A stretch of DNA of 64,000 nucleotides, taken from NCBI GenBank assembly GCA_002269645.1, contig NIVC01000493.1:434001-498000 (forward strand), written 5' to 3'. The translations under genes were made by a program, and so were the position numbers. The notes under the pieces are model-generated. The model saw nothing but the letters and a program-made list of their open reading frames with translations, had not been told where the DNA came from and did not search any database. Positions 31,400 to 64,000 of the stretch are shown piece by piece (within the stretch, counting starts at the first letter, position 1; each line of letters starts with the position of its first letter). Source of the stretch: Macrostomum lignano (taxonomy: Eukaryota).

Positions 31400-33621
31400 C
31401 TACTGACTGGCTTACTTAACTATTGAGTTCCAACTGTCCTAAAATTTGTGCTTGACTGATACTACAGTTTATTTTAAAACTGTCTATGGTAAAAACAGTA
31501 CAGAATCATGCAGTAAATTTTTCCTGATACCACAAACTTTTCGAACTTTACTGTATAATTAATTCAACTTACACAAGACTCAAAATGGTTAACAATATTG
31601 ACAAGGCTGCAATTGCAATATGGAAGGTCCCCTGTTTTCACCAGCGATGGCAGCGACAGCGAATGTCGATGGAGAGTTGCTGGACGAGGAAGATGGTGAG
31701 AATAATGCGGAAGTAGCTGAGCATGGAGTCGAGTTCGCTAACGAGGATGAATGGACAGCTGCTCAAGATGGTGAAGATTTGCGTCTCAACGATCTGCCCG
31801 AATTCCTCGCTGTGCCTGGCCTGAACCCAGACATCCAAGCAAAGCTCCTGAGGGTAAAATGGGCCAGGTGCAATTCTATCTGCAGCACTTTCTCACCGCT
31901 GATCTGGTGTCTGCCATTCGCATCTGGACCAACGCCCGAGCTGACATGGAGCTTCAACATTTGACAGCTGAAGATCAGGACGGAGCTCTTCCCAATTTGC
32001 TATCAACTTGGAGACCGTGTACCGACAATGAGGTGAAGAAGTCTCTAGCAATCGTTCTGTACATGTGTCTTGTGAAGAAGCCCGAAATGCACATGTACTG
32101 GTCCACGGGAGACTTCTACGGCGGCGAATACTTCCAGAAAGAACATTGCCTTGGAAGGGATCGGTTTGTGCAGATATTATCATTCCTTCGATTTTACGAC
32201 TGCACCACGGTCAACCACCAGGACTCCTTGAAAAAGATTCAACCTTTTCTTAACATTGCCCGCGATATTTGCCAAGCAAATTACAGCCCAAGTCAAGAGG
32301 TGTCTGTCGATGAAGAAACTGGTCATGTACAAGAGCAGGCTCATTTTCCGGCAGTTCATGCCCAACAAGCGTGACAGATTCGGCATCAAGGTCTACTGCT
32401 TGACGGAAGTTTCGACAGGTTTTCTGTGGAACTTTCATGTACATGCTGTTAAGCAGGATAACGACAAGTTTGGAGATGGATTAAACTGCGGGAATTTGTC
32501 GATGAGCGAGAAGATCGTCGTTGAATTGAGTAAAAATTTGCTGGACCTGGGGCACAAGGTCTTCTGTGACAGCTGGTTCACATCGCTCCGTCTGGCGCAG
32601 TTTCTGCTGGAACGCAGTAGTTTACTGACTGGGACGGTGAGCCCCAATCGAGGTGTGCCGAATGAGCTGAAAGTGCTGCCCCTGCAACCCGTCAGTCACT
32701 CCCAGATGCGCCGCGGCGATGTTCTCACAGTCAGGCTTGTAGACAGGAAGGCAAGCGGTCGCAAAACTGTGTACTTGTTGAACACGCACGGTGTTGCTGA
32801 AAGCACAGAAGTGAGGCGAGTGATCCGAGGCGGAGCGGAGGAGTCAGCTTTAAAGCCGAATTCGGTGCTGCGGTACAATAAGTACATGGGAGGCATTGAT
32901 TGCCTTGATGCAGCACTGCAGCGCCTTACAGTGCGGGGAGAAGAACATACAGATGGCACCAGAAGCTCGGGTTCCACATTTTGCTGCAGTTGGTCCGCAA
33001 TGCCTGGATCTGCAACTGCCAAAGAGGAAGGAAAATCAAATTCGTTGAATTTTTGGAAGCTGCGATCCGCACTCTCATGGAGCAGACAGGCCAGGGCAAA
33101 CGTTTGAATACATCGAAGCGCAGGGCTGTCTCATAGCATGCGCCATCAAAGCTGCCGCCGACAGATGGCAATGCAAGGCCGACAAAGCGATGCAGAGTCT
33201 GCTACAGCAATGGTGTGCCCAAGAGAACGGTGTTCGTATGCGCTGGTTGCCCAGGAGAGCCCGGGCTGTGTGCTGTCCCGTGCTTACAGAATTGGCACAC
33301 TGCAGCAGCACAGTAGTTACACTGGTGGTACCGTGTAAAACTTAAGTACGTTCAGAATACGAAATTCAAAACGCTCCTCCTAAATGCCTCATTAATGCAT
33401 TAAATATTGTTTACCTATTTGTTTTTGTTCTGTCGTTGTCCCTTTTTTTAAAGTTTTTGTTTTCTATCCTGTACTTGCAGTCAAATATAGTGGAAAAACT
33501 ACGAAAAAATAACATGGTACGCACAGCGTGCCATCCGTGACTTATGGGGATGTCGAGAAAGTCATATTTATGCTAAACCATCTAAGCCATAGACACGTAT
33601 TCTCAGTGTTGGGGGGGTTAA
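31400..33621 (+). mobile_element. piggyBac DNA transposon remnant (approximate extent)
   Basis: Contains the transposase pseudogene; candidate right end GGGGGGG|TTAA at ~33617-33621; no convincing left TIR. Confidence 0.55.
31620..33316 (+). pseudogene. piggyBac transposase (PGBD4-like), inactivated
   Basis: Consecutive frames give ..EVSVDE / RQFMPNKRDRFGIK / FCDSWFTS / YNKYMGGIDCLD / RWHQKLGFH, plus a C-terminal Cys-rich CRVC..CAGC..LCAVPC..WH. Frameshifts near 31850, 32320 and 32935, and a TAG at ~33134. Confidence 0.93.
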
Positions 33622-40380: not shown

Positions 40381-40517
40381 CGCAAAGTTATTGAGCTATT
40401 GGAGAGTCGGGCGCCTTACAGCTGAGCTGCAATCGCAAGTGTTTCGCCTTTGCAGCTCTAAACTTTTAAATTGGGAAATTTCTAATTTCTTTCCCGCTCC
40501 CCTCATCTCCTTGGCAG

Positions 40518-41409
40518 AATCCGCAGGCTGTCGCTGACGGAGCCGCAGCCAGCGCATCGAATGGCGCCGCCTGGCAGCTCTGGCGCCGACGCCGCCGACT
40601 CCGCTGCCAGTTCGTCTTCGAAGGAGGCGCCGCCGCGGCTGATGGTCGACAGCAAAGACGACAACGACGGCGACCCGACGACGTCTACAGCAGTTCCCAC
40701 CACCGGAGTTGTCGTTGTTGTGGCGCCGCAGGCGGACGAGTCCTGCCCTGAGTTGCCGGCCGCTCCCTCCGTATCGCCTGCCGGGGTTGCCGAGCCGCCA
40801 GTTCTGGTTGTCAATGGCGACATCAGCTTGGCAACAACTGCCATGCCGACGCTGCCGCCGCCGGCTGCTGCTGCTGCTGCGGCGATTCGCACCTTCGCCT
40901 CGGCTTCAACATCGCCTTCGCCGTCGTCGCCTGCTGTATCGGCTACGACAATCTCTGTCGGTTCCATCGTCGGCGCTGTTGTTGCTTCTTCGTCAGAGGA
41001 GGCGTCGTCAACTGCGGCTGCTCAGTCGCAGGTGCAGCAGCAGCCACAGCAGCAGCAACAGCCGCCATCTCCTCACGTCAAGCTGTCCCGTCAATCGTCT
41101 ACTAATTCTTCCCAGCAGCAGCAGTCGCATCACAGCAGGTCGCGCGAGGAGAAACAGAAAGAGAGGCAGCGCCGGCGCGAGGCGCAGATGTGGCGCCGGC
41201 ACCAGATGGAGCTGCAGCTGAAGCAGCGGGGCATCGCGGTCAGTCCGTGTGGCCGGTGGATTAAGCATAATTTAAAGTGCGGCGAAGGCGCCTACAAACG
41301 AGTGTACAGGGGCTACGATCGGGAGCAGGGCCGGCCCATAGCCTGGTGCGAGCTCAAGTACCAGGTTGGGAAGGACAAACCGGCCGAGAGGGATCAGGTT
41401 CGCAAAGAG
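40518..41409 (+). CDS. WNK: WNK-family Ser/Thr kinase, exon 2 (N-terminal low complexity, Q-rich/coiled coil, kinase subdomains I-III)
   Basis: SPCGRWIKHNLKCGEGAYKRVYRGYD..IAWCEL shows the WNK signature: Lys in the Gly-loop and Cys in subdomain II. Acceptor TTGGCAG at 40517, donor GAG|GTGAGA at 41410. Confidence 0.9.
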
Positions 41410-41469
41410 GTGAGATCCTATCTTTTTTGTGAGACTCTACAATTTTTACAAATAATCCTTCACAATCCC

Positions 41470-41925
41470 TTTCCTAAAGATCTTAATCCTTAAAATATCA
41501 ATCCCTAGAATCCCAATCACTAAAATACCAATCCCTAGAATCCCAATCACTAAAATACCAATCCCTAGAATCCCAATCGCTAAAATCCCAATCCCTAGAA
41601 TCCCAATCCCTAAAATCCGAATCCCTAAAATTCGAATCCCTAAAATCACAATCCCTAAAATCCCAATCCCTAGAATCCCCATCCCTAAAATCACAATCCC
41701 TAGAATCCCGATCCCTAAAATCCCAATCCCTAAAATCCGAATCCCTAAAATCACAATCCCTAAAATCACAATCTCTAGAATCCCAATCCCTAAAATCACA
41801 ATCCCTAGAATCCCGATCCCTAAAATCCCAATCCGTAAAATCCGAATCCCTAAAATCACAATCCCTAAAATCACAATCTCTAGAATCCCAATCTTCAAAA
41901 TCACAATCCTTAAAATTGCTAACCT
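41470..41925. repeat. Intronic 15-bp minisatellite (AATCCCTAAAATCCC)n
   Basis: About 30 copies filling intron 41410-41944. Confidence 0.97.
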
Positions 41926-41944
41926 CAAACCCGCCAACTCGCAG

Positions 41945-42210
41945 GTTGAGATGATGATCAAGTGCGAGCACCCCAACATAGTCCGCTATTATGACTTGCT
42001 CGACTGCTATTTTGAACTAGACGAGAACGGCGAGAGAGGCGAGAAAGTGAAAGCCACCGTGATTGTCACCGAGTTCATGAGCGAGGGCACGCTCAAGGAG
42101 AAGATGAAGACTTTCTATAATGAGCAGACCAGAGAGGCTGTGGTTGAGTTCAGCGTGTTTCAGTCCTGGATGCAGCAGATTCTCGAGGGACTGAGGCACA
42201 TGCATCACAA
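41945..42210 (+). CDS. WNK: WNK-family kinase, exon 3 (subdomains III-VIa)
   Basis: VEMMIKCEHPNIVRYYD..IVTEFMSEGTLK..WMQQILEGLRHMH; canonical AG/GT, phases 0 to 2. Confidence 0.92.
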
Positions 42211-42289
42211 GTGAGTTTGGTTTAGATGCTTTTGTTGGACTTTAAATTTAACCTTCATCATCACCAAACACCAGACAAACCTTCAAAAA

Positions 42290-42770
42290 CTGAATCTCAC
42301 CAGCCCGAATCTTCACCAACCCGAATCTTCACCAGCCCGAATCTTCACCAACCCGAATCTTCACCAACCCGAATCTTCACCGACCTGAATCTTCACCAAC
42401 CTGAATCTTCACCAGCCCGAATCTTCACTTCACCAACCCGAATCTTCACCAACCCGACTCTTTACCAACCCGAATCTTCACCAACCCGAATCTTTACCAA
42501 ACTGAATATTTACTAACCCGAATCTTCACCAAACTGAATATTTACCAACCCGAATCTTCACCAACCTGAATATTTACCAACCCGAATCTTCACCAACCTG
42601 ATTATTTACCAACCTGAATCTTCACCAACCCGAATCTTTACCAACCCGAATCTCTCACCAACCCGAATCTCTCACCAACCCGAATCTTCAACCTGAATCT
42701 GCAACCCAAATTTTCACCAACCCGAATCCGAATTTTCACTAAAAATACTTACTAACTCGAATCTTCACGG
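42290..42770. repeat. Intronic 16-bp minisatellite (CTTCACCAACCCGAAT)n
   Basis: Read directly. Confidence 0.93.
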
Positions 42771-43649
42771 AACCAAAGCTTTAAAATCTTCACAATTGTG
42801 AATCTGTACAAGCCATGGTGACCAAAACCCGAATATTCACATTCACATTCACACGCTGGCTAATAATCCAGCCTAAGTTGAAACTGTATTTGCAAAATTT
42901 CTGCTTCAATATTTCATGGTGATAAGGCTACTTTTGAACACCCCGCTTACTTGCTTTGCCCTTATTTGTCTGTGTATTATCGACAATTTGGCAACTGAAT
43001 TGTGTGAAATATTGTAACAAATTATGAAAATTTAATTCAAAAGTCCAAATTTCAGTATGCCAAAATTAAAAGTTGGTGTGTCATGACACACGTTATGAAA
43101 CATAAACCAGGGCTGTTGTACATGTCCCTGTACTCTGCACCTTGGGCTGGGGGGGGGGCTTGGCGACAATTCTTTAGCTGTATAATTGATAAGAATTTCT
43201 TTTAGCTAGACTGCGCACTTGAAATCAAACTGGATAGATATTTAGATAGATTATTGCATTATAGGCCGTACCAGTGCAGTCTTCTCAGTCTTAGGCATTG
43301 AGAAGATAAACTAAGTCGCGTGACTACAGCCGAGAAATTGTGAGAGCGCGTTGTTTTTTTACAACTGTGCACTATTAGGCCATTTTGTTAGTTTCAAAGC
43401 GTTGCTTTGACCCTGCTATTGCGCATTTATTTGTCTTCTTAACTAGTTGGTTGGGCTCATTGCTCATGGCTTCACTAGCTCATTAATAATGCTACACTTC
43501 ATGGAATTTTTGAGCTCCTAGAACTGAACATGCTTTATTTGATTTCATTTGCATTATTTAGCAAAATAATACTGCATTTCTATTATACAAAAATCACCAG
43601 TATTTGCGCAAGTAAAATAAAAAATAAGTCTTTGTTTAATCCGTAGCAA

Positions 43650-44030
43650 CGAATCTTCATGAGTATTTCTAAATGAGTATTGTTTCCTCGTGTTTCTAAT
43701 TGAGTCTTTGTTCCATCATGTTTCTAAATGAGTCATTGTTTCATCGTGTTTCTAAATGAGTCTTTCATCATGTTTCTAAATAAGTCTTTGTTCCATCATG
43801 TTTCTAAATGAATCTTTGTTTCCTCGTGTTTCTAAATGGATCTTTGTTTCATTTTGTTTCTAAATAGGTCTTTGTTTCATGTTTCTAAATGAATATTTGT
43901 TTCATCATGTTTCTAAATAGGTCTTTGTTTCATCGTGCTCCTAAATAAGTCAGTTTCATTATGTTTCTCAATTAGTTTTTGTTTAATACTTCAGAATCAG
44001 TCTTCGTCTCATCCCGGAGAAAGAGTCTTT
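43650..44030. repeat. Intronic degenerate ~28-29-bp repeat (TGTTTCTAAATGAGTCTTTGTTTCATC-like)
   Basis: TGTTTCTAAAT recurs about 11 times. Confidence 0.8.
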
Positions 44031-44167
44031 ATTATTTGAACATGAATTAACAAAACGAATGTAGGGTTTTCCAATATAGGACTGGTCTTTGTTTAAATAG
44101 TTTCACGTAAATATTTTTATATCTTTTAATGAGTTGTAACTATTTTGCCGATTTCCTTTAATCGCAG

Positions 44168-44497
44168 AATGAACCCGCCAGTGATCCACCGCGACCTCAA
44201 GCCGGAGAACGTGTTCATAGCCGATGGCGAGAATCCTGACGAATATTATAACATCAAAATTGGCGACTTCGGCCTGGCCACTGCCAAGACTCAGAGCCGC
44301 AAGACCATGCTGGGCACTCTGGGCTACATGGCTCCGGAGATGCTGCAGGAGCGATACGACGAGAAAGTCGACATATTCGCCTTTGGCCTGCTCATGGTGG
44401 AGCTGGTCACCAACTGTGTGCCGTATCAGGAGTGCCAGAACTTTATGGATGTCTGGCAAAGGATTGCTAGCACCACTCCGCCTCAGGTGCTGAACAG
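44168..44497 (+). CDS. WNK: WNK-family kinase, exon 4 (catalytic loop to subdomain X)
   Basis: MNPPVIHRDLKPENVFI..KIGDFGLA..GTLGYMAPE..YDEKVDIFAFG..PYQEC; phases 2 to 2. Confidence 0.95.
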
Positions 44498-44514
44498 GTG
44501 AGAATTGATTGGCA

Positions 44515-46680
44515 ACTAGTTTGCATCTAGCCAGTATCTAGTTTGCATCTAGTCAGTATCTATTTTGCATCTAGTCAGTATCTAGTTTGCATTTAGTCAG
44601 TATCTAGTTTGCATCTAGTCAGTATCTAGTTTGCATCTAGTCAGTATCTAGTTTGCATCTAGTCAGTATCTAGTTTGCATCTAGTCAGTATCTAGTTTGC
44701 ATCTAGTCAGTATCTAGTTTGCATCTAGTCAGTATCTAGTTTGCATCTAGTCAGTATCTAGTTTGCATCTAGTCAGTATCTAGTTTGCATCTAGTCATCT
44801 AGATCTAGTTTGCATCTAGTCAGTATCTATTTTGCATCTAGTCAGTATCTAGTTTGCATTTAGTCAGTATCTAGTTTGCATCTAGTCAGTATCTATTTTG
44901 CATCTGGTCATCTAGATCTAGTTTGCATCTAGTCAGTATCTATTTTGCATCTAGTCAGTATCTATTTTGCATCTAGTCAGTATCTAGTTTGCATTTAGTC
45001 AGCATCTAGTTTGCATCTAGTCAGTATCTAGTTTGCATCTAGTCAGTATCTAGTTTGCATCTAGTCAGTATCTAGTTTGCATCTAGTCAGTATCTAGTTT
45101 GCATCTAGTCAGTATCTAGTTTGCATCTAGTCAGTATCTAGTTTGCATCTAGTCATCTAGATCTAGTTTGCATCTAGTCAGTATCTATTTTGCATCTAGT
45201 CAGTATCTATTTTGCATTTAGTCAGTATCTAGTTTGCATCTAGTCAGTATCTATTTTGCATCTAGTCATCTAGATCTAGTTTGCATCTAGCCAGTATCTA
45301 GTTTGCATCTAGTCAGTATCTATTTTGCATCTAGTCAGTATCTAGTTTGCATTTAGTCAGTATCTAGTTTGCATCTAGTCAGTATCTAGTTTGCATCTAG
45401 TCAGTATCTAGTTTGCATCTAGTCAGTATCTAGTTTGCATCTAGTCAGTATCTAGTTTGCATCTAGTCATCTAGATCTAGTTTGCATCTAGTCAGTATCT
45501 ATTTTGCATCTAGTCAGTATCTATTTTGCATCGAGTCAGTATCTATTTTGCATCTAGTCAGTATCTATTTTGCATCTAGTCAGTATCTAGTTTGCATCTA
45601 GTCAGTATCTATTTTGCATCTAGTCAGTATCTAGTTTGCATCTAGTCAGTATCTAGTTTGCATCTAGTCAGTATCTATTTTGCATCTAGTCAGTATCTAG
45701 TTTGCATTTAGTCAGTATCTAGTTTGCATCTAGTCAGTATCTAGTTTGCATCAAGTCAGTATCTAGTTTGCATCTAGTCAGTATCTAGTTTGCATCTAGT
45801 CAGTATCTAGTTTGCATCTAGTCAGTATCTAGTTTGCATCTAGTCATCTAGATCTAGTTTGCATCTAGTCAGTATCTATTTTGCATCTAGTCAGTATCTA
45901 TTTTGCATCGAGTCAGTATCTATTTTGCATCTAGTCAGTATCTATTTTGCATCTAGTCAGTATCTAGTTTGCATCTAGTCAGTATCTATTTTGCATCTAG
46001 TCAGTATCTAGTTTGCATCTAGTCAGTATCTAGTTTGCATCTAGTCAGTATCTATTTTGCATCTAGTCAGTATCTAGTTTGCATTTAGTCAGTATCTAGT
46101 TTGCATCTAGTCAGTATCTAGTTTGCATCAAGTCAGTATCTAGTTTGCATCTAGTCAGTATCTAGTTTGCATCTAGTCAGTATCTAGTTTGCATCTAGTC
46201 AGTATCTAGTTTGCATCTAGTCAGTATCTATTTTGCATCTAGTCAGTATCTATTTTGCATCTAGTCAGTATCTAGTTTGCATCTAGTCAGTATCTAGTTT
46301 GCATCTAGTCAGTATCTAGTTTGCATCTAGTCAGTATCTAGTTTGCATCTAGTCAGTATCTAGTTTGCATCTAGTCAGTATCTAGTTTGCATCTAGTCAG
46401 TATCTAGTTTGCATCTAGTCATCTAGATCTAGTTTGCATCTAGTCATCATCTAGATCTAGTTTGCATCTAGTCATCATCTAGATCTAGTTTGCATCTAGT
46501 CATCATCTAGATCTAGTTTGCATCTAGTCATCATCTAGATCTAGTTTGCATCTAGTCATCATCTAGATCTAGTTTGCATCTAGTCATCATCTAGATCTAG
46601 TTTGCATCTAGTCATCATCTAGATCTAGTTTGCATCTAGTCATCATCTAGATCTAGTTTGCATCTAGTCATCATCTAGTT
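44515..46680. repeat. Intronic 22-bp minisatellite (TAGTTTGCATCTAGTCAGTATC)n, ~98 copies
   Basis: Starts 17 nt after the donor; its 3' end shifts to a CATCATCTAGATC variant. Confidence 0.97.
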
Positions 46681-46786
46681 GACAACTAGTTGACAGCTGA
46701 ATGTCTAGGTGACAACTAGTCTCGTGATCTATTCAACATCTATTATCCATAGGCATTCGATCCCACCCGCCTTCTCTGCAAATCAG

Positions 46787-47330
46787 GCTGGAGAATCCGG
46801 AAATCCGGGACATATTTTTCACGTGCACGCATCCGCTGCCGGATTTCCGGCCCACTTCCGAGGAGCTGCTCTCGTTGCAAATCTTCAATCTGAAGCCGAT
46901 CCCAGTTCAGGTGCAGTTGGTCCGCCTGTCCCAGACAGTCCGCTGGCAGGACGAGGATACCGTGTCGCCGACTCAGCCGACGGTAGCCGCCGCCCAGCAA
47001 CAAATATCTGGCACTTCTTCGACGGCCAGGCATCGGGCCTTGTCGGCCGACGTCGAGTACGTCGGCGATCCCGGTCGTTACTATCACGTGGCCGACTTTC
47101 GTCTGGTGGTGAACGATCGAGCGCTGCAGCAGCAGATGCGAATCCTGCCCGGTGTCGGATTCGAATTCCAGCTCGACTGCTTCATCGATGAGGATTTGGA
47201 GAATGTCGTTAATTCGTTTGCCGATTTGGCCGAGTCGGACGCGCCGGGGCTCAGCGCCGATCAGCTGCGTCGGCTGCGACAGAAGGTGGTGAACAGCGTC
47301 AGAAACCAACTGCTGTACTACCGGAAGAAG
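46787..47330 (+). CDS. WNK: WNK-family kinase, exon 5 (subdomain XI plus autoinhibitory/CCT-like domain)
   Basis: Acceptor AAATCAG at 46786 gives R-LENPEIRDIFFTC..RPTSEELL; then FRLVV..FEFQLDCFIDEDLENVV, resembling the WNK autoinhibitory domain; donor at 47331. Confidence 0.85.
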
Positions 47331-47344
47331 GTGCGATATTCTTG

Positions 47345-47885
47345 GGATAATCTAGCCCATGTGGATTAGGGATAGAATGGATTGCTAATCTAGCCCATGT
47401 GGATTAGGGATAGAATGGATTGCTAATCTAGCCCATGTGGATTAGGGATAGAATGGATTGCTAATCTAGCCCATGTGGATTAGGGATAGAATGGATTGCT
47501 AATCTAGCCCATGTGGATTAGGGATAGAATGGATTGCTAATCTAGCTCATGTGGATTATGGATAGAATGGACTGCTAATCTAGCCCATGTGGATTAGGGA
47601 TAGAATGGATTGCTAATCTAGCTCATGTGGATTATGGATAGAATGGATTGCTAATATAGCTCACGTGGATTAGGGATAGAATGGATTGCTAATATAGCTC
47701 ACGTGGATTAGGGATAGAATGGATTGCTAATCTAGCCCATGTGGATTATGGATAGAATGGATTGCTAATCTAGCCAATGTGGATTAGGGATAGAATGGAT
47801 TGCTAATCTAGTCCATGTGGATTAGGGATAAAATGGATTGCTAATATAGCTCACGTGGATTAGGGATAGAATGGATTGCTAATCT
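47345..47885. repeat. Intronic 38-bp minisatellite (AATCTAGCCCATGTGGATTAGGGATAGAATGGATTGCT)n
   Basis: About 14 copies; period 38. Confidence 0.97.
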
Positions 47886-47941
47886 ATCCCAATCCAATAA
47901 CTTCAAGACATTCAAGCCCCATCCGAAACAATATCGCTCAG

Positions 47942-48446
47942 GTGCTAGCGGGCATCTGGAACTACTTCATGGACCTGATCCGCGACTCGGAGCCCGAGAA
48001 GGACAGCGAGCTGGACACCTGCATCGTTCGGCTCGGCCTGCAGGCGCGCCGATGGGCCGAAGCGAAACGGCGCGTCATCAAGGAGCGAGACGACTACAAC
48101 GGGCGCTGGGAGGAGGAGGCGGGCGGCGGCGGCAGTGGCGGCCAAGGCCAGGCCTCGCCTGCCACGGCTCCTTCGTCCGCGGCCGTCTCCAGGCAGGTCA
48201 GCCAGGTCGACTCGCAGTCGCAGCAGCAACAGCAACTGGCCGACTGTCTGTGCGAGCAGCCGCTGAACGAATCGCCAAAGGCGCCCGCTGATCAAAACTT
48301 TGGCTACTTTGGCGTGCCGGGCAGTCCGGGCTACCAGCCGCAGGTAGAAAGCTTGCCAGCCGCCATGTCTGCGTCCATGTCGGCCATTATGAACGGGCAG
48401 CACCATGGCAACGGGCTTCAGTACGACTTTTTAGCGTCTAATTCTT
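47942..48446 (+). CDS. WNK: WNK-family kinase, exon 6 (coiled coil plus low complexity)
   Basis: Acceptor CTCAG at 47941 (phase 0), donor T|GTGAGT at 48447 (phase 1); frame-consistent with both neighbours. Confidence 0.75.
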
Positions 48447-48494
48447 GTGAGTGTTGGATTTCATATTTATTCAAAATCATTGTATGTGACTGAG

Positions 48495-48880
48495 CTCCCA
48501 TTGAACCCATTTTATCCTGGTTTGGTATTTAAGGGGCTCTTAGCTCCCATTGATCCCCATTTTATCCCAATGTGGGATTTCAATGACTCTTAGCTCCCAT
48601 TGATCCCCATTTTATCCTATTGTGGGATTTAGTTGACTCTTAGCTCACATTGATCCCCATTTTATCCCGGTGCGGGATTTCAATGACTCTTAGCTCCCAT
48701 TGATCCCCATTTTATCCTATTGTGAGATTTAGTTGACTCTTAGCTCCCATTGATCCCCATTTTTTCCCAATGTGGGATTTCAATGACTCTTAGCTCCCAT
48801 TGATCCCCATTTTATCCTATTGTGGGATTTCAATGACTCTTAGCTTCCATTGATCCCCATTTTATCCCGGTGTGGGATCT
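48495..48880. repeat. Intronic 50-bp minisatellite (TAGCTCCCATTGATCCCCATTTTATCC..GGGATT..GACTCT)n
   Basis: About 8 copies; period measured 48541 to 48591. Confidence 0.95.
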
Positions 48881-48934
48881 GAATGCCTATAAGAGCAACT
48901 TATTTGAATGATCCCACATTCGGATTAATTTCAG

Positions 48935-49513
48935 TCATCTCAAGTTCCTCTGTGAACGCCACCGTGACCGCCACCGTGACGTCATCGCTGGTGGCGCCGG
49001 TCTCTGCTGACCTGCCATCCTCGCCGCTGTTGCTGTCTCTGGACGCCGGCGAAGCGGCTCTGTCGGCGCCGGTATCGCCTGCGGTCCGCTGTCGGAAGGA
49101 AAGCAGCGGCGCCAGTCAGCAGCGGCGCCGAGCGGAGTCGCCGGCGCCTCCGACCACGCCGACAGCCGCTCACCCGCTCAGCCAGCAGCGGCTCATGCAG
49201 CACTGGACAACGATGAGCTCCGGCTCCGCTCAGCTGCTCTTGCCGGGCCTGCCACCGCAGCCTCTGCCAGGACTTGAGGCCGGGCGTTGCCTTCTGCTCT
49301 GCCCGAGTGCGTCTGGAACGCAGGCGCCGGCCACCACCGTCACCTGCTTGGCCTTCGATGGCGGGCCGCAGATGCGTCTGGAAGACGTGCTAGCCGTGCT
49401 GTCCGCCGTGCAGGCGTCGGCATCGGCTGCGACTGCGACGAACGGTGCCGAGTGCGGCGACGTTCAACGGGCGGAGACTGACCAGGGTGCACCTGGCACT
49501 CCCACTGGCCTGG
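48935..49513 (+). CDS. WNK: WNK-family kinase, exon 7 (Ser/Ala/Pro-rich); gene continues, next exon unresolved
   Basis: Acceptor TTTCAG at 48934 (phase 1), donor G|GTGAGC at 49514; GC-rich open frame. Confidence 0.7.
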
Positions 49514-49544
49514 GTGAGCGCCTGTCCGCGTTTGGAGAGGGTGG

Positions 49545-49940
49545 GGAGAGCATTGGTCATGGGATGTGTAGGGAGCATTGGTCATGGGGTGTGTAGGGAG
49601 CATTGGTCATGGGGTGTGTAGGGAGCATTGGTCATGGGGTGTCTAGGGAGAATTGGTCATGTGGTGTGTAGGGAGCATTGGTCATGGGGTGTGTAGGGAG
49701 CATTGGTCATGGGGTGTCTAGGGAGAATTGGTCATGGAGTGTGTAGGGAGCATTGGTCATGGGGTGTGTAGGGAGAATTGGTCATGAGTGTGTAGGGAGT
49801 ATTGATCATGGAGTGTGTAGGGAGTATTGATCATGGAGTGTGTAGGGAGAATTGGTCATGAGTGTGTAGGGAGTATTGATCATGGAGTGTGTAGGGAGTA
49901 TTGATCATGGAGTGTATAGGGAGTATTGATCATGGAGTGT
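49545..49940. repeat. 25-bp minisatellite (GGGAGCATTGGTCATGGGGTGTGTA)n
   Basis: About 16 copies starting ~30 nt after the donor. Confidence 0.95.
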
Positions 49941-60400: not shown

Positions 60401-60689
60401 GGGTCCTCAAATACTAAAACTGTTACTCAAATATGGAGAAAATTTATTAATCCTTAAAATTCGCCCAATTCTCAGAAGCTCGGCACTACTATATGAACCC
60501 GAATGGCGCGATTTTGGAGGTGAGGTGGGTGTCAACCCTCCTCGCCTCTCATTGGCTGGCGCCCCGATCACTAGGTGATCGATACCCGTATCGATATCGG
60601 CGCTCGGCGCGCGCGCGCGCCGCAGGCGCCAAGCGCCGCAGGCGACCCTCCCCAGCCGCAGGCGCACCTACCGATATTAGATCCCAATA

Positions 60690-60910
60690 AATCAATCAGA
60701 TCCCAAATCAATCAGATCCCAAATCAATCAGATCCCAAGCGCACCCTCCCGAGCCGCAGGCGCCCATGCCGCAGGCACCCCGAGTGTACACTCTACCGAG
60801 CCGCAGGCACCCCGAGTGTACACTCTACCGAGCCGCAGGCACCCCGAGTGTACACTCTACCGAGCCAAAGGTACACTCTACCACTCTCCCGATATGTACA
60901 CTCTACCACT
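60690..60910. repeat. GC-rich repeat cluster: 16-bp x3 and 32-bp x3 containing the palindrome GAGTGTACACTC
   Basis: AATCAATCAGATCCCA repeats; CGAGTGTACACTCTACCGAGCCGCAGGCACCC at 60781 and 60813. Confidence 0.85.
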
Positions 60911-61743
60911 CTTCCGATATGTAGTCAACGATATTAGGCTAGTGAAAACTACTTATAGTAGATGAAATTGCGTATATTTACATAAAAATGTAGATAAAAC
61001 ATATTGGTAGGTGAATAATGACGCATATTGCATATTAAAATGTACATATTGGAGCATATGAGCAGCAAAAACACACAATGTAGGTGTATGGGCAGAAATA
61101 GACAAAGCAGGTACTGTAGGCGCTACATAGGTGGAAATACACACAGCAGGTTTACAAAGTGTACTTTCGATACATATCGGGTTAATGTATAAAGCAGGTT
61201 TACAAGGCATGCATAAGGTGTAGTTGTATAATACAGGCACGCATGTATAATCAGATTATAGGCAAACGCCCAGGTGCAACAGACGCGTAAATAATGTCAC
61301 ACCGACTAAAGAGTAAATATTGTCTAACCCGCAGGTGCATAAAAATTTTAAACAAAAGCGGTTCGGGGAAATCCCAAAAGGGAGGTTCACGGCCTAATGA
61401 CCCGATATACTTTCAACACAATTAAACCCACAAGTGGGCTAGAAAAATGGACAACGTATTTCGATTGCGCTATCAGTACGCTAATCAGCGCAGCAAGTTC
61501 ATGTCAGGAGTTCTACTCCAAGAGGCGGACCGCTGGGCCACAAACCGCCCCGAGGGAATAGGTGTCAAATGGGAGTTTTAACACTTGAGGGGATCCCGCT
61601 CAATGTACAGTGGAGGTGCCAAATGAGTAAGGACCCTAAGTACAGTGCGGGCGTAAAACCATTTTCATCCCCACGAGTCAAGGGATCCCAAGTGGGCACA
61701 TAGGGGAATCCCAGGCGTGCAAAGACAGATCCTTATCTTTCAC

Positions 61744-62137
61744 TCACTCCCGAAAGCCATACGGGCGGCTAGCGGCCCCATACACCCTCTTAGTCATTAC
61801 GCGCTGGAAAGTCTTGTCCATCTCGAGGGTCCGGATTGTACAGCTAGCCTTATCGCGCCTGAACTGGGCCTGGGGCAGGCGTACAGTCCCGCCGTGACGC
61901 AGAATTTCCTGCAGCTCGTCCTCGCGCTCGGAAATCTCGGGGGTGACTCTGATGCCCTTGCACTTGAGCACCGAGTACAGCGACCCGTCGGGCTTCTCCA
62001 CCACGTACCGGTAGAGCTTGGGGCCTCCCGTGGTGAACTGTACCATGCGGCAGCCAGCAGGTACCTCGTCAGTCCACTGCCCCAAACTCGAACCGCCCGG
62101 AGGCTCGTACTCGCCCGGAGAGCAGCGGTATACGACC
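61744..62137 (-). CDS. Protein-primed DNA polymerase B, last exon
   Basis: Acceptor CCTCCCAG at 62138; S-VVYRC..LGQWTDE..GPKLY..LKCKGI..KR..SRPYGF-stop. Confidence 0.92.
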
Positions 62138-62207
62138 CTGGGAGGAGGAGAAGGATAAAGTGTTAAGGGGAGAAAGAGAGACAGAGACAGTTGAAAAAAT
62201 TACTCAC

Positions 62208-62501
62208 GAATCAGTATCGGCGTAAATGACGCGGGTTCCTAGACCCTCCAGAGCCTCGTAGAGTCGCAGCCGGGCGTGGGAGGTGGTGAAAACGCCAATA
62301 GGTACATTAGCGTACTTGAACGCCCGCTCGCCAGCACCGCCAAATCGGGGCTTGTACTCGAGCATCATGAAGCTCTCCCCAATTGGCTCGCACGACTTGA
62401 CCTTGATCGAGGGGTCGGTCAGGCGCTGCAGCCACGCCTCGTAGCTGTCCACAATCTCTGTGGAGGTCAGGTCGTCGCGCTGGCAGAATTTGCCCCAGAG
62501 C
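62208..62501 (-). CDS. Protein-primed DNA polymerase B, exon (motif B end to motif C)
   Basis: S-LWGKF..NVPIGVFTTSHARLRLY..VIYADTDS; acceptor CCCTGCAG at 62502, donor TC|GTGAGT at 62207. Confidence 0.93.
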
Positions 62502-62571
62502 CTGCAGGGAAAAATAAATTTTTTTTTGTAAGTAGAAAAACACGGCCCCCACTGCAAGTAGAAAAACTTAC

Positions 62572-63119
62572 GAGTTTAGAAAAATCTTGGCCACAAAGCG
62601 CAAGCCAGGATTCTCCTCCACCTTTTCCAGCCGGACGCCTTCGCGCTCGAAAAAGCTGGCCATGTAGGCAGCCTTGGCGTCCTCAGCCATCCCCGGCGAA
62701 CCGCTAGACTCGGCTTTGAGCTTTAAAAAAGTGTTTACGTAATCTGCAAACAGGCCCGTGCGAGTCTCGGTCCAATAGGCCAGGGCATGAACTGACTGCA
62801 GCTTGTAACCCAACTGCAGGGCTTTGTGGAGCTCTGGGGTCGACCACGTGCCGCGGAGCATTCTCTCAGCGTCAGTGTGTGTACACTCGCTGCTGCACTG
62901 GGTCTCCATGCAGACGCGGCAGAGGCCGAAAACCAGCTTCTTGTTAATCTTGGCGGGCAGTAGCGGGATGTGGAGATTGGTTGGCGGCAGAATCGACACC
63001 TCGGCGATGCCAAAATACCGGGCCAGCTGCAGCTCATCCAGTAGATGAGGCTCGGGGTGGTGAACCGGGTGCCCGACCGGGTACTTGTCAAACTTGTTGA
63101 CAGTCGGGTAGAGCGACAC
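62572..63119 (-). CDS. Protein-primed DNA polymerase B, exon (motif A to motif B)
   Basis: VSLYPTVN..YPVGHP..GTW..PEL..YVNTFLKLKAESSG..NPGLRFVAKIFLNS; acceptor CCCCTAG at 63120, donor TC|GTAAGT at 62571. Confidence 0.93.
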
Positions 63120-63188
63120 CTAGGGGATAAGGATAAGATAAACTCAAACGCATGTCAACTGTGTGTGTGTACAAGTGTACAAACTTAC

Positions 63189-63998
63189 CACATCCCGATA
63201 GCGCAGCTCTACAGTCTCGGTGGCCTCGGCGTGCGGGACAAAAGCCTCGGTACGGCCGCCAAACAGGGCATCCTCCAGGCGAATAGGCTGCTGGACTGGC
63301 GCTCCCTCGTCCTGATAGTCGTGCTCCCACAGAACACGCACATTGTATGCAGTGGAGAGCAGCCGGGTGAAGCGCTCAGTCTCCTCATAAATTGCTCGCA
63401 TTGGCTGGTTCTTGAGCGGGTGCAGCACGTCGCCGTTGGGGAAGCACTTGGGACAGCCATGGAAGAAGCAGCCATGAAACTGCAGCACTGTCCTGGTCTC
63501 TGGGTCGAAGCCGTCGACCTTACGGCCCATGGCGAAAGCCTCGCCGCCCGAGTCCGCTGTCCGCAACCGGCCGCCAAACTCGGTTGCATTTAAATGTGCC
63601 AGCCAGCACCGCGCCTTGTGCGACTGTACATCGGACCGGCGGGAAATCACCCCAAGAGTGTTGGGCTCCATAAACTTGGTGGTGAATACCGACATGGCCA
63701 AGCCCGCAATGGTGTTGGATTGAACAAATGCGTCCAGTCCGCAAATGTCCTTAATCAGGCGGGTGTACTTTAGACAGCCTTCCCGCAAAATTAACGTGTC
63801 CTGCAGGCAGTAGTCCAGGTACTCCTTATTGAAATTAAACACCTGTCCCTCCTGCTTGGCCAGCCAGTCGGCGATGGAGTCATGCTGCTTATTCTTCTTC
63901 CCGCCGTACATATCAATTGAGCAGTAGGGACCGACGTACCCCCAATTTTGAGGCTGGTTAAACACGTGCGGGAAATCTCCTTTGGTCAGTTGGGTGCC
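63189..63998 (-). CDS. Protein-primed DNA polymerase B, exon (exonuclease end, Vsr-like insert, pre-motif A); open to the window edge
   Basis: KGDFPHVFN..YCLQDTLIL..TIAGLAM..KVDG..QFHGCFFHGCPKC..LFGGRTE..YRDV; donor GTG|GTAAGT at 63188. Spliced total in window is 2046 nt = 681 aa plus stop. Confidence 0.93.
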
Positions 63999-64000
63999 CA

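Follow-up and report, generated by a model that had tools for sequence, protein, structure and literature searches.

A probable Polinton-derived transposon lineage with a spliced protein-primed DNA polymerase gene in Macrostomum lignano

Can a Polinton-type protein-primed DNA polymerase (pPolB) gene that is interrupted by spliceosomal introns belong to a mobile element, or has a viral polymerase been domesticated by its host? The question is raised by the end of the window, i.e. the 64,000-nucleotide stretch of the 764-Mb M. lignano genome that was analyzed (G000:C493:434001-498000; window position is the C493 position minus 434000). A first-pass annotation described four open reading frames that join through three introns, and proposed either an intron-bearing lineage dependent on host splicing or a domesticated viral polymerase.

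The pPolB gene and its element

The features are listed below, by window position as far as 64000 and by contig position beyond it.

60479..60484, no strand: left target-site duplication (TSD) CTCGGC, 6 bp, repeated at G000:C493:503963-503968
60485..61387, no strand: left terminal inverted repeat (TIR), 903 bp, begins 5'-ACTACTATATG, 100% identical to the right TIR
61744..62137, minus strand: pPolB exon 7 (end of motif C, KxY, KxKG, C-terminus, stop)
62138..62207, minus strand: pPolB intron 6, 70 nt, phase 2, inside motif C; joints in runs X1, X4 and X8
62208..62501, minus strand: pPolB exon 6, from frame and spliced joints
62502..62571, minus strand: pPolB intron 5, 70 nt, phase 2, inside motif B; joints in runs X1, X4 and X8
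62572..63119, minus strand: pPolB exon 5; PF03175, E 1.2e-12
63120..63188, minus strand: pPolB intron 4, 69 nt, phase 0, inside motif A; from frame and conservation
63189..64000, minus strand: pPolB exon 4, window part; the remainder runs to C493:499108
To C493:499108, minus strand: pPolB exon 4 whole, 1,920 nt; predicted vOTU His, Cys-rich repeats, exonuclease I-III, VSR-like insert
Beyond window, minus strand: pPolB intron 3, 232 nt, between exons 3 and 4
Beyond window, minus strand: pPolB exon 3, predicted vOTU Cys; frameshifted near its start in the window copy
Beyond window, minus strand: pPolB intron 2, 70 nt
Beyond window, minus strand: pPolB exon 2, 45 nt
Beyond window, minus strand: pPolB intron 1, 761 nt
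To C493:500845, beyond window, minus strand: pPolB exon 1, 61 nt
C493:501084-501617, plus strand: ORF2, 177 aa, PC4-like, divergent
C493:501733-502743, plus strand: ORF3, orphan, one 91-nt intron
G000:C493:503060-503962, beyond window: right TIR, 903 bp

The three window introns lie exactly where they were first placed (63188-63120, 62571-62502, 62207-62138) and have canonical ends: GTAAGT..TAG in intron 4, GTAAGT..CAG in intron 5 and GTGAGT..CAG in intron 6. Once they are removed, the four exons give the single frame that had been described, 681 codons and a stop with zero internal stops; retention of intron 4, 5 or 6 leads to a stop codon after 14, 1 and 1 codons, respectively. The GC content is 0.36-0.43 in these introns versus 0.57-0.62 in the exons. 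In the family of the window copy (family A, 31 pPolB-bearing loci), GT and AG are kept in 31/31 (intron 4), 30/30 (intron 5) and 26/26 (intron 6) of the copies with anchorable exon ends. Intron lengths vary freely among the copies while GT and AG stay fixed, thus the window introns are more than chance. The gene was termed intact, and the window part is indeed open; the whole copy however carries a frameshift early in exon 3, outside the window.

The PF03175 match covers exons 4 and 5. The family profile matches phi29 polymerase (E 1.9e-9), which also ranks first with an alignment-based structure model of exon 4 (pLDDT 83.5), and the assignment to Polinton-type protein-primed PolB is supported by profile and fold. 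The pPolB catalytic motifs are present. The profile displays a further match to VSR (1vsr, 1odg; E ~8e-4), and the VSR motif is present in exon 4. The candidate vOTU motifs NxDxxCLxRA and HFNVV are present as well, and the His is invariant in alignment A2.

In UniRef, proteins with 57-99% identity to exon 4 bear the label Macrostomum lignano, and automated multi-exon models named "DNA-directed DNA polymerase" are already present there. The nearest relatives outside Macrostomum are ~30-40% identical and come from metagenomes and assorted animals. A scan of viral contigs with exon 4, which is sensitive to close relatives only, gave zero relatives.

The element is 9,478 bp in length with 5'-ACTACT ends. 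Integrase, capsid, ATPase and protease genes had been expected beyond 64000, however the element ends ~5,960 bases past the window, and that region instead contains three more introns and the 903-bp TIR, two kinds of feature that the first-pass annotation had suggested looking for. The ORF inventory shows only pPolB (VSR type), the PC4-like ORF2 and the orphan ORF3. Neither the inventory nor Pfam gives an integrase, ATPase, protease or capsid gene in the element, and no integrase, ATPase or capsid Pfam family is found among 78 frames of the element, the palindrome arm (described below) and family B. A highly diverged, finely split virion gene inside the element is still conceivable. ORF3 has zero matching Pfam families. 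Its relatives in UniRef are named "DDE_Tnp_1_7", "ParB", "Nanos" or "BSD"; these names are mutually contradictory, have no Pfam support and were not adopted.

Splicing of the element transcripts

Contigs of four of the 24 listed runs, from four studies, were compared with the whole element. X1, X4 and X8, from three studies, are taken to be RNA-type runs, a guess supported only by their spliced joints; none of the listed runs is recorded as RNA. Introns 6, 5 and 3 and the ORF3 intron are joined in all three, intron 1 is joined in two, and the exon 2-3 junction is found as a joint in one run, while the other two have loose ends that match there. None of the listed splice joints occurs in the unclassified control run X19.

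No spliced joint for intron 4 (63188-63120) is present among the joints listed. Contigs of X1 and X4, with depths of 110 and 150, read on into this intron, and the motif-A intron may frequently be retained in transcripts. Contigs drop minority paths, thus the read-through is no proof that splicing is absent. Conservation speaks for splicing of intron 4 at least sometimes. Its length is not divisible by three in 26 of the 31 family-A copies, it is found at the same position in 9/9 family-B copies, and the D-x-x-S-L-Y-P spacing present in 115 of 152 non-host homologues supports its removal. The RNA check of the three window junctions is therefore divided: introns 5 and 6 are spliced, whereas intron 4 is absent among the listed joints. 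The proposal of a lineage that depends on host splicing is supported, and it extends to six pPolB introns and two families.

Among 43 annotated host proteins (P0002 and others), the gene models of 19 join motif A as predicted and those of 17 splice the motif-A donor to a later point.

No two of the seven introns (six in pPolB, one in ORF3) are similar at E<1e-3, and their boundaries lack 6-nt repeats; an introner origin was ruled out on these grounds.

Dispersed copies and palindromic satellites

At least 37 pPolB-bearing places with 92-100% DNA identity are present in the genome (37 scored of 774 candidates). The family-A end motif has 250 genome matches versus 0 for a control motif. The 31 family-A loci analyzed are mostly best hits and thus a non-random sample. 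A perfect 6-bp TSD is found in 24/24 of those that have both ends in the stretch, and these copies are 8.7-9.7 kb in length (24/24). Shorter TSD-flanked copies of 3.2 and 4.4 kb exist.

Family B consists of 10 loci with 53-74% protein identity to family A, ACTACGT ends and 75 end-motif matches. Perfect 6-bp TSDs are present in 4/4 full-length family-B copies (of 10 loci) and in 11/11 elements that have ends of this kind without a pPolB; three of four family-B copies are 9.5-10.4 kb. Integrase, ATPase and capsid probes gave zero matches in family-B loci, and no ORF3 match is listed for them. Family-B loci include L071-L072, L082-L083, L087 and L059-L060; one copy carries a dUTPase (PF00692, E 3e-28), and two full-length copies have no PC4-like match.

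The dN/dS values, from up to 25 random pairs per exon with open exons only, are 0.00-0.16 in family A, 0.05-0.19 in family B and 0.12-0.17 for comparisons across the two. The copy-number and selection checks that had been suggested thus give at least 37 copies and dN/dS about 0.1. Introns 3-6 are at the same positions in both families with diverged sequences (~0.5 aligned identity), and dS between A and B is 1.2-3.1, which indicates that the shared introns are old.

Exons 4-7 are uninterrupted in 10 of the 31 family-A loci and have a break or gap in 21. Of 28 copies that could be scored, 23 keep exons 1-3 in frame; the frameshift of the window copy lies in this region. Some of the breaks may be assembly errors. 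In one family-A copy (L068, G000:C1158:30001-40000) an inverted duplicate of the ORF2-ORF3 arm stands in place of the last pPolB exon, a fold-back rearrangement.

Within a copy the two ends agree (median 0.99), and in 10 of 24 copies the identity is complete over 250 nt; between copies the ends differ (median 0.70). This is the pattern that panhandle replication predicts.

Loci were also picked as end-motif pairs 8.5-9.5 kb apart, and 10 of these 12 lack a pPolB. The ten are near-perfect palindromes, 8.7-9.4 kb in length (10/10), with ACTACT ends, 6-bp TSDs, arms ~99% identical and a short central spacer (L091-L100, e.g. L094, G000:C303:572501-582400). Only ~300-480 bp of terminus is shared with the pPolB element, and 6 of 8 palindrome end variants are common to pPolB elements. 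Here too, both ends of one copy match and copies differ. A search with the arm gave 122 candidates, and 40/40 of those scored are at 98-100%. There are no recognized genes in the arm, and the integrase probe has zero matches in 11 non-pPolB elements. These features are consistent with protein-primed strand displacement, panhandle repair and occasional fold-back.

Origin, mobilization and alternative readings

A FastTree tree with SH-like support only was made from 53 rows: four element copies, four co-resident pPolBs and the first 45 homologues with motifs A and C. Families A and B form one clade. Its sister is a metagenomic protein of 806 aa from a 3.2-kb contig; its three motifs are uninterrupted, and it appears from its sequence to be intronless. 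On that basis the tree points to gain of the introns in the A + B lineage. The element pPolB branches at a great distance from the four canonical pPolBs of the same genome, thus a helper among these is not the parent of the element.

The genome has 115 Polinton-integrase matches and canonical Polintons of at least three families, with single-ORF intronless pPolB genes (L051-L058, L063-L066); those measured are 12.1 and 16.4 kb. A helper is therefore available. In the main integrase-bearing family 11 of 12 sampled ends are AGTAGT and one is AACAGT, and a second family also displays AGTAGT. No integrase-bearing helper with ACTAC ends was found among families whose ends were examined. A genome-wide Pox_A32 search gave 0 matches and is uninformative, as the ATPase of a canonical element matches that family.

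Some details of the canonical elements may be added. An Endonuclease VII insert is present in three of four scanned pPolBs; a dUTPase occurs in one family, and in one family a PC4-like gene adjoins the integrase. The integrase on C106, the only one located between family ends and a candidate for an autonomous ACTAC element, really belongs to a nested AGTAGT canonical Polinton with its own TSD; at this locus (L088-L090, G000:C106) the 12.1-kb Polinton is nested in a palindrome-type element.

The element is probably a Polinton-derived self-synthesizing transposon that has lost virion and integrase genes and gained spliceosomal introns. The need for the spliceosome, the TSDs and the chromosomal location indicate that it is nuclear. 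Transcription by the host would start at a central divergent promoter, and six pPolB introns would be removed by the spliceosome, five of them supported by joints and the motif-A intron predicted from conservation. The putative ~1,270-aa TP-vOTU-exonuclease(VSR)-palm protein would replicate a linear form, with protein priming at the ACTACT ends; this would involve strand displacement and pass through a panhandle intermediate, and the PC4-like protein may assist. Copying would be from DNA to DNA, thus introns would be inherited. An rve integrase acting in trans would then insert the product with a 6-bp TSD, its donor most likely being the canonical Polintons of the same genome. The 9-kb palindromes with the same ends may be second-order parasites of this machinery.

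Integrase borrowing is the weakest step of this model. AGTAGT and ACTAC both fit A-x-T-A. The difference between these ends and the distance of the polymerases mean that borrowing needs relaxed end recognition or an unseen helper. The absence of a matching-end helper among the families examined, the lack of a motif-A joint among those listed, the guessed RNA status of the runs and the finding of only 10 of 31 loci open are points against the transposon model.

The pPolB element may alternatively be the replicase segment of a multipartite or satellite virus, with ACTAC partners, perhaps the palindromes, or canonical Polinton capsids that package and integrate it. The clustered lengths (8.7-9.7 kb in A, 8.7-9.4 kb in palindromes, 9.5-10.4 kb in B) and the 6 of 8 shared palindrome end variants are in line with this, and segments of Bidnavirus have common termini according to the accessible part of PMC8502044. 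It is nevertheless unlikely, as the palindrome arm has no recognized known gene, TSD-flanked copies of 3.2 and 4.4 kb are present, canonical elements are 12.1 and 16.4 kb, and the viral contigs gave zero relatives in a scan that detects close ones only.

It is improbable that the family became extinct recently, its helper gone and its relic copies transcribed and spliced passively. The broken or gapped exons 4-7 in 21 of 31 family-A loci and the frameshift in the window copy would be explained by this. However, ends identical over 250 nt in 10 of 24 copies, palindrome arms that are 98-100% alike in 40/40 scored matches and exons 1-3 in frame in 23 of 28 copies speak against it, and some breaks may come from the assembly.

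Integration without an rve integrase, by the element's own proteins (the VSR-like nuclease in pPolB, or ORF3), is quite improbable. Although the element has no integrase, its ends are unlike those of the integrase-bearing families examined and the VSR-like motif is retained, the 6-bp TSD is a signature of Polinton integrase in the portion of PMC8097293 consulted, and VSR inserts are also present in ordinary Polintons (10.1101/2023.08.22.554363, in part). ORF3 has no Pfam match, and no match to ORF3 is listed in family-B loci.

A domesticated polymerase gene, as the first-pass annotation had considered, would account for the introns, expression and purifying selection, but is hardly tenable for a dispersed multi-copy family with TIRs, copy-specific TSDs and many broken copies and no sign of a single fixed locus.

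The transposon model can be extended, with much reservation, to a three-tier Polinton ecosystem in one genome combined with a retention switch at the motif-A intron. Canonical Polintons would lend integrase, and perhaps capsids, to the spliced replicase-only transposon, which would drive the palindromes. Messages that retain the intron would supply terminal protein without active polymerase and so set the primer-to-polymerase ratio. Retention leads to truncation in family A and to an in-frame stop-free insert in 7 of 9 family-B copies. Adenoviruses set this ratio by alternative splicing.

Compared with VSR-insert pPolB2 Polintons, as described in the available part of 10.1101/2023.08.22.554363, the element shares the exonuclease, VSR-like insert and palm of its pPolB and a putative vOTU, as well as long TIRs, a 6-bp TSD and a short repeated end motif. 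It differs in its six pPolB introns, its length (9.5 kb versus 15-20 kb) and the absence of a detected integrase, ATPase, protease or capsid gene. Its end motif is 5'-ACTAC, with the repeat (ACT)2 in family A and ACTACGT in family B, whereas Polintons have (AGT)2, (AG)3 or (AC)3A. The 6-bp TSD is a Maverick signature, and core genes of Polintons are intronless, unlike the pPolB here (both from PMC8097293, in part). The element is thus Polinton-like in replication and insertion, and falls outside the group in integrase, virion genes, introns and end motif.

Fungal cytoplasmic linear plasmids of the pGKL type derive from Polintons by loss of the morphogenetic module (10.1101/2024.03.18.585575). 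They too are capsid-less replicons based on TP-vOTU-pPolB, a putative architecture in the case of the element, and on TIRs; the element however is chromosomal, has TSDs and depends on the spliceosome. Introner-invaded Maverick/Polinton-like proviruses of dinoflagellates also have spliceosomal-type insertions inside the element, but most of those introners are post-integration and the capsid genes are kept (10.1101/2025.03.18.643946), whereas the seven introns here are mutually unrelated, four positions occur in both families and the introns are inherited through amplification. Nematode Mavericks likewise carry introns in a mobile element (10.1101/2022.07.12.499685); there the cargo bears introns and the core is intronless, while here the core replicase holds them.

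A description of a spliced pPolB or of Macrostomum Polintons was not found in the literature searched, the scope of which left out Repbase, the founding papers and supplements. The portions available of PMC8502044, PMC5718144, PMC6431247, PMC12220804, PMC11071296, 10.64898/2026.07.28.741278, 10.64898/2026.10.13.758929 and 10.1101/2024.01.15.575659 contain no such element.

It has long been asked whether Polintons are endogenous viruses or true transposons; the usual picture is of an intronless core with a full virion module. This lineage represents the other end point, without virion genes or integrase and with six replicase introns, yet under purifying selection and with recent clean insertions. 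It makes testable the replication of Polintons apart from virion formation, the use of a Polinton integrase in trans on different ends, and intron gain by a lineage of viral polymerases. Surveys based on open reading frames would call such elements fragmented and discard them, thus similar families may be missed elsewhere.

The window contains no tRNA genes. Two other features are found on its plus strand: an open reading frame at 32232-33107 which by motif presumably is a fragment of a piggyBac-type transposase, and, at 40486-49596, exons that we take to encode a putative WNK-like host protein kinase, also by motif.
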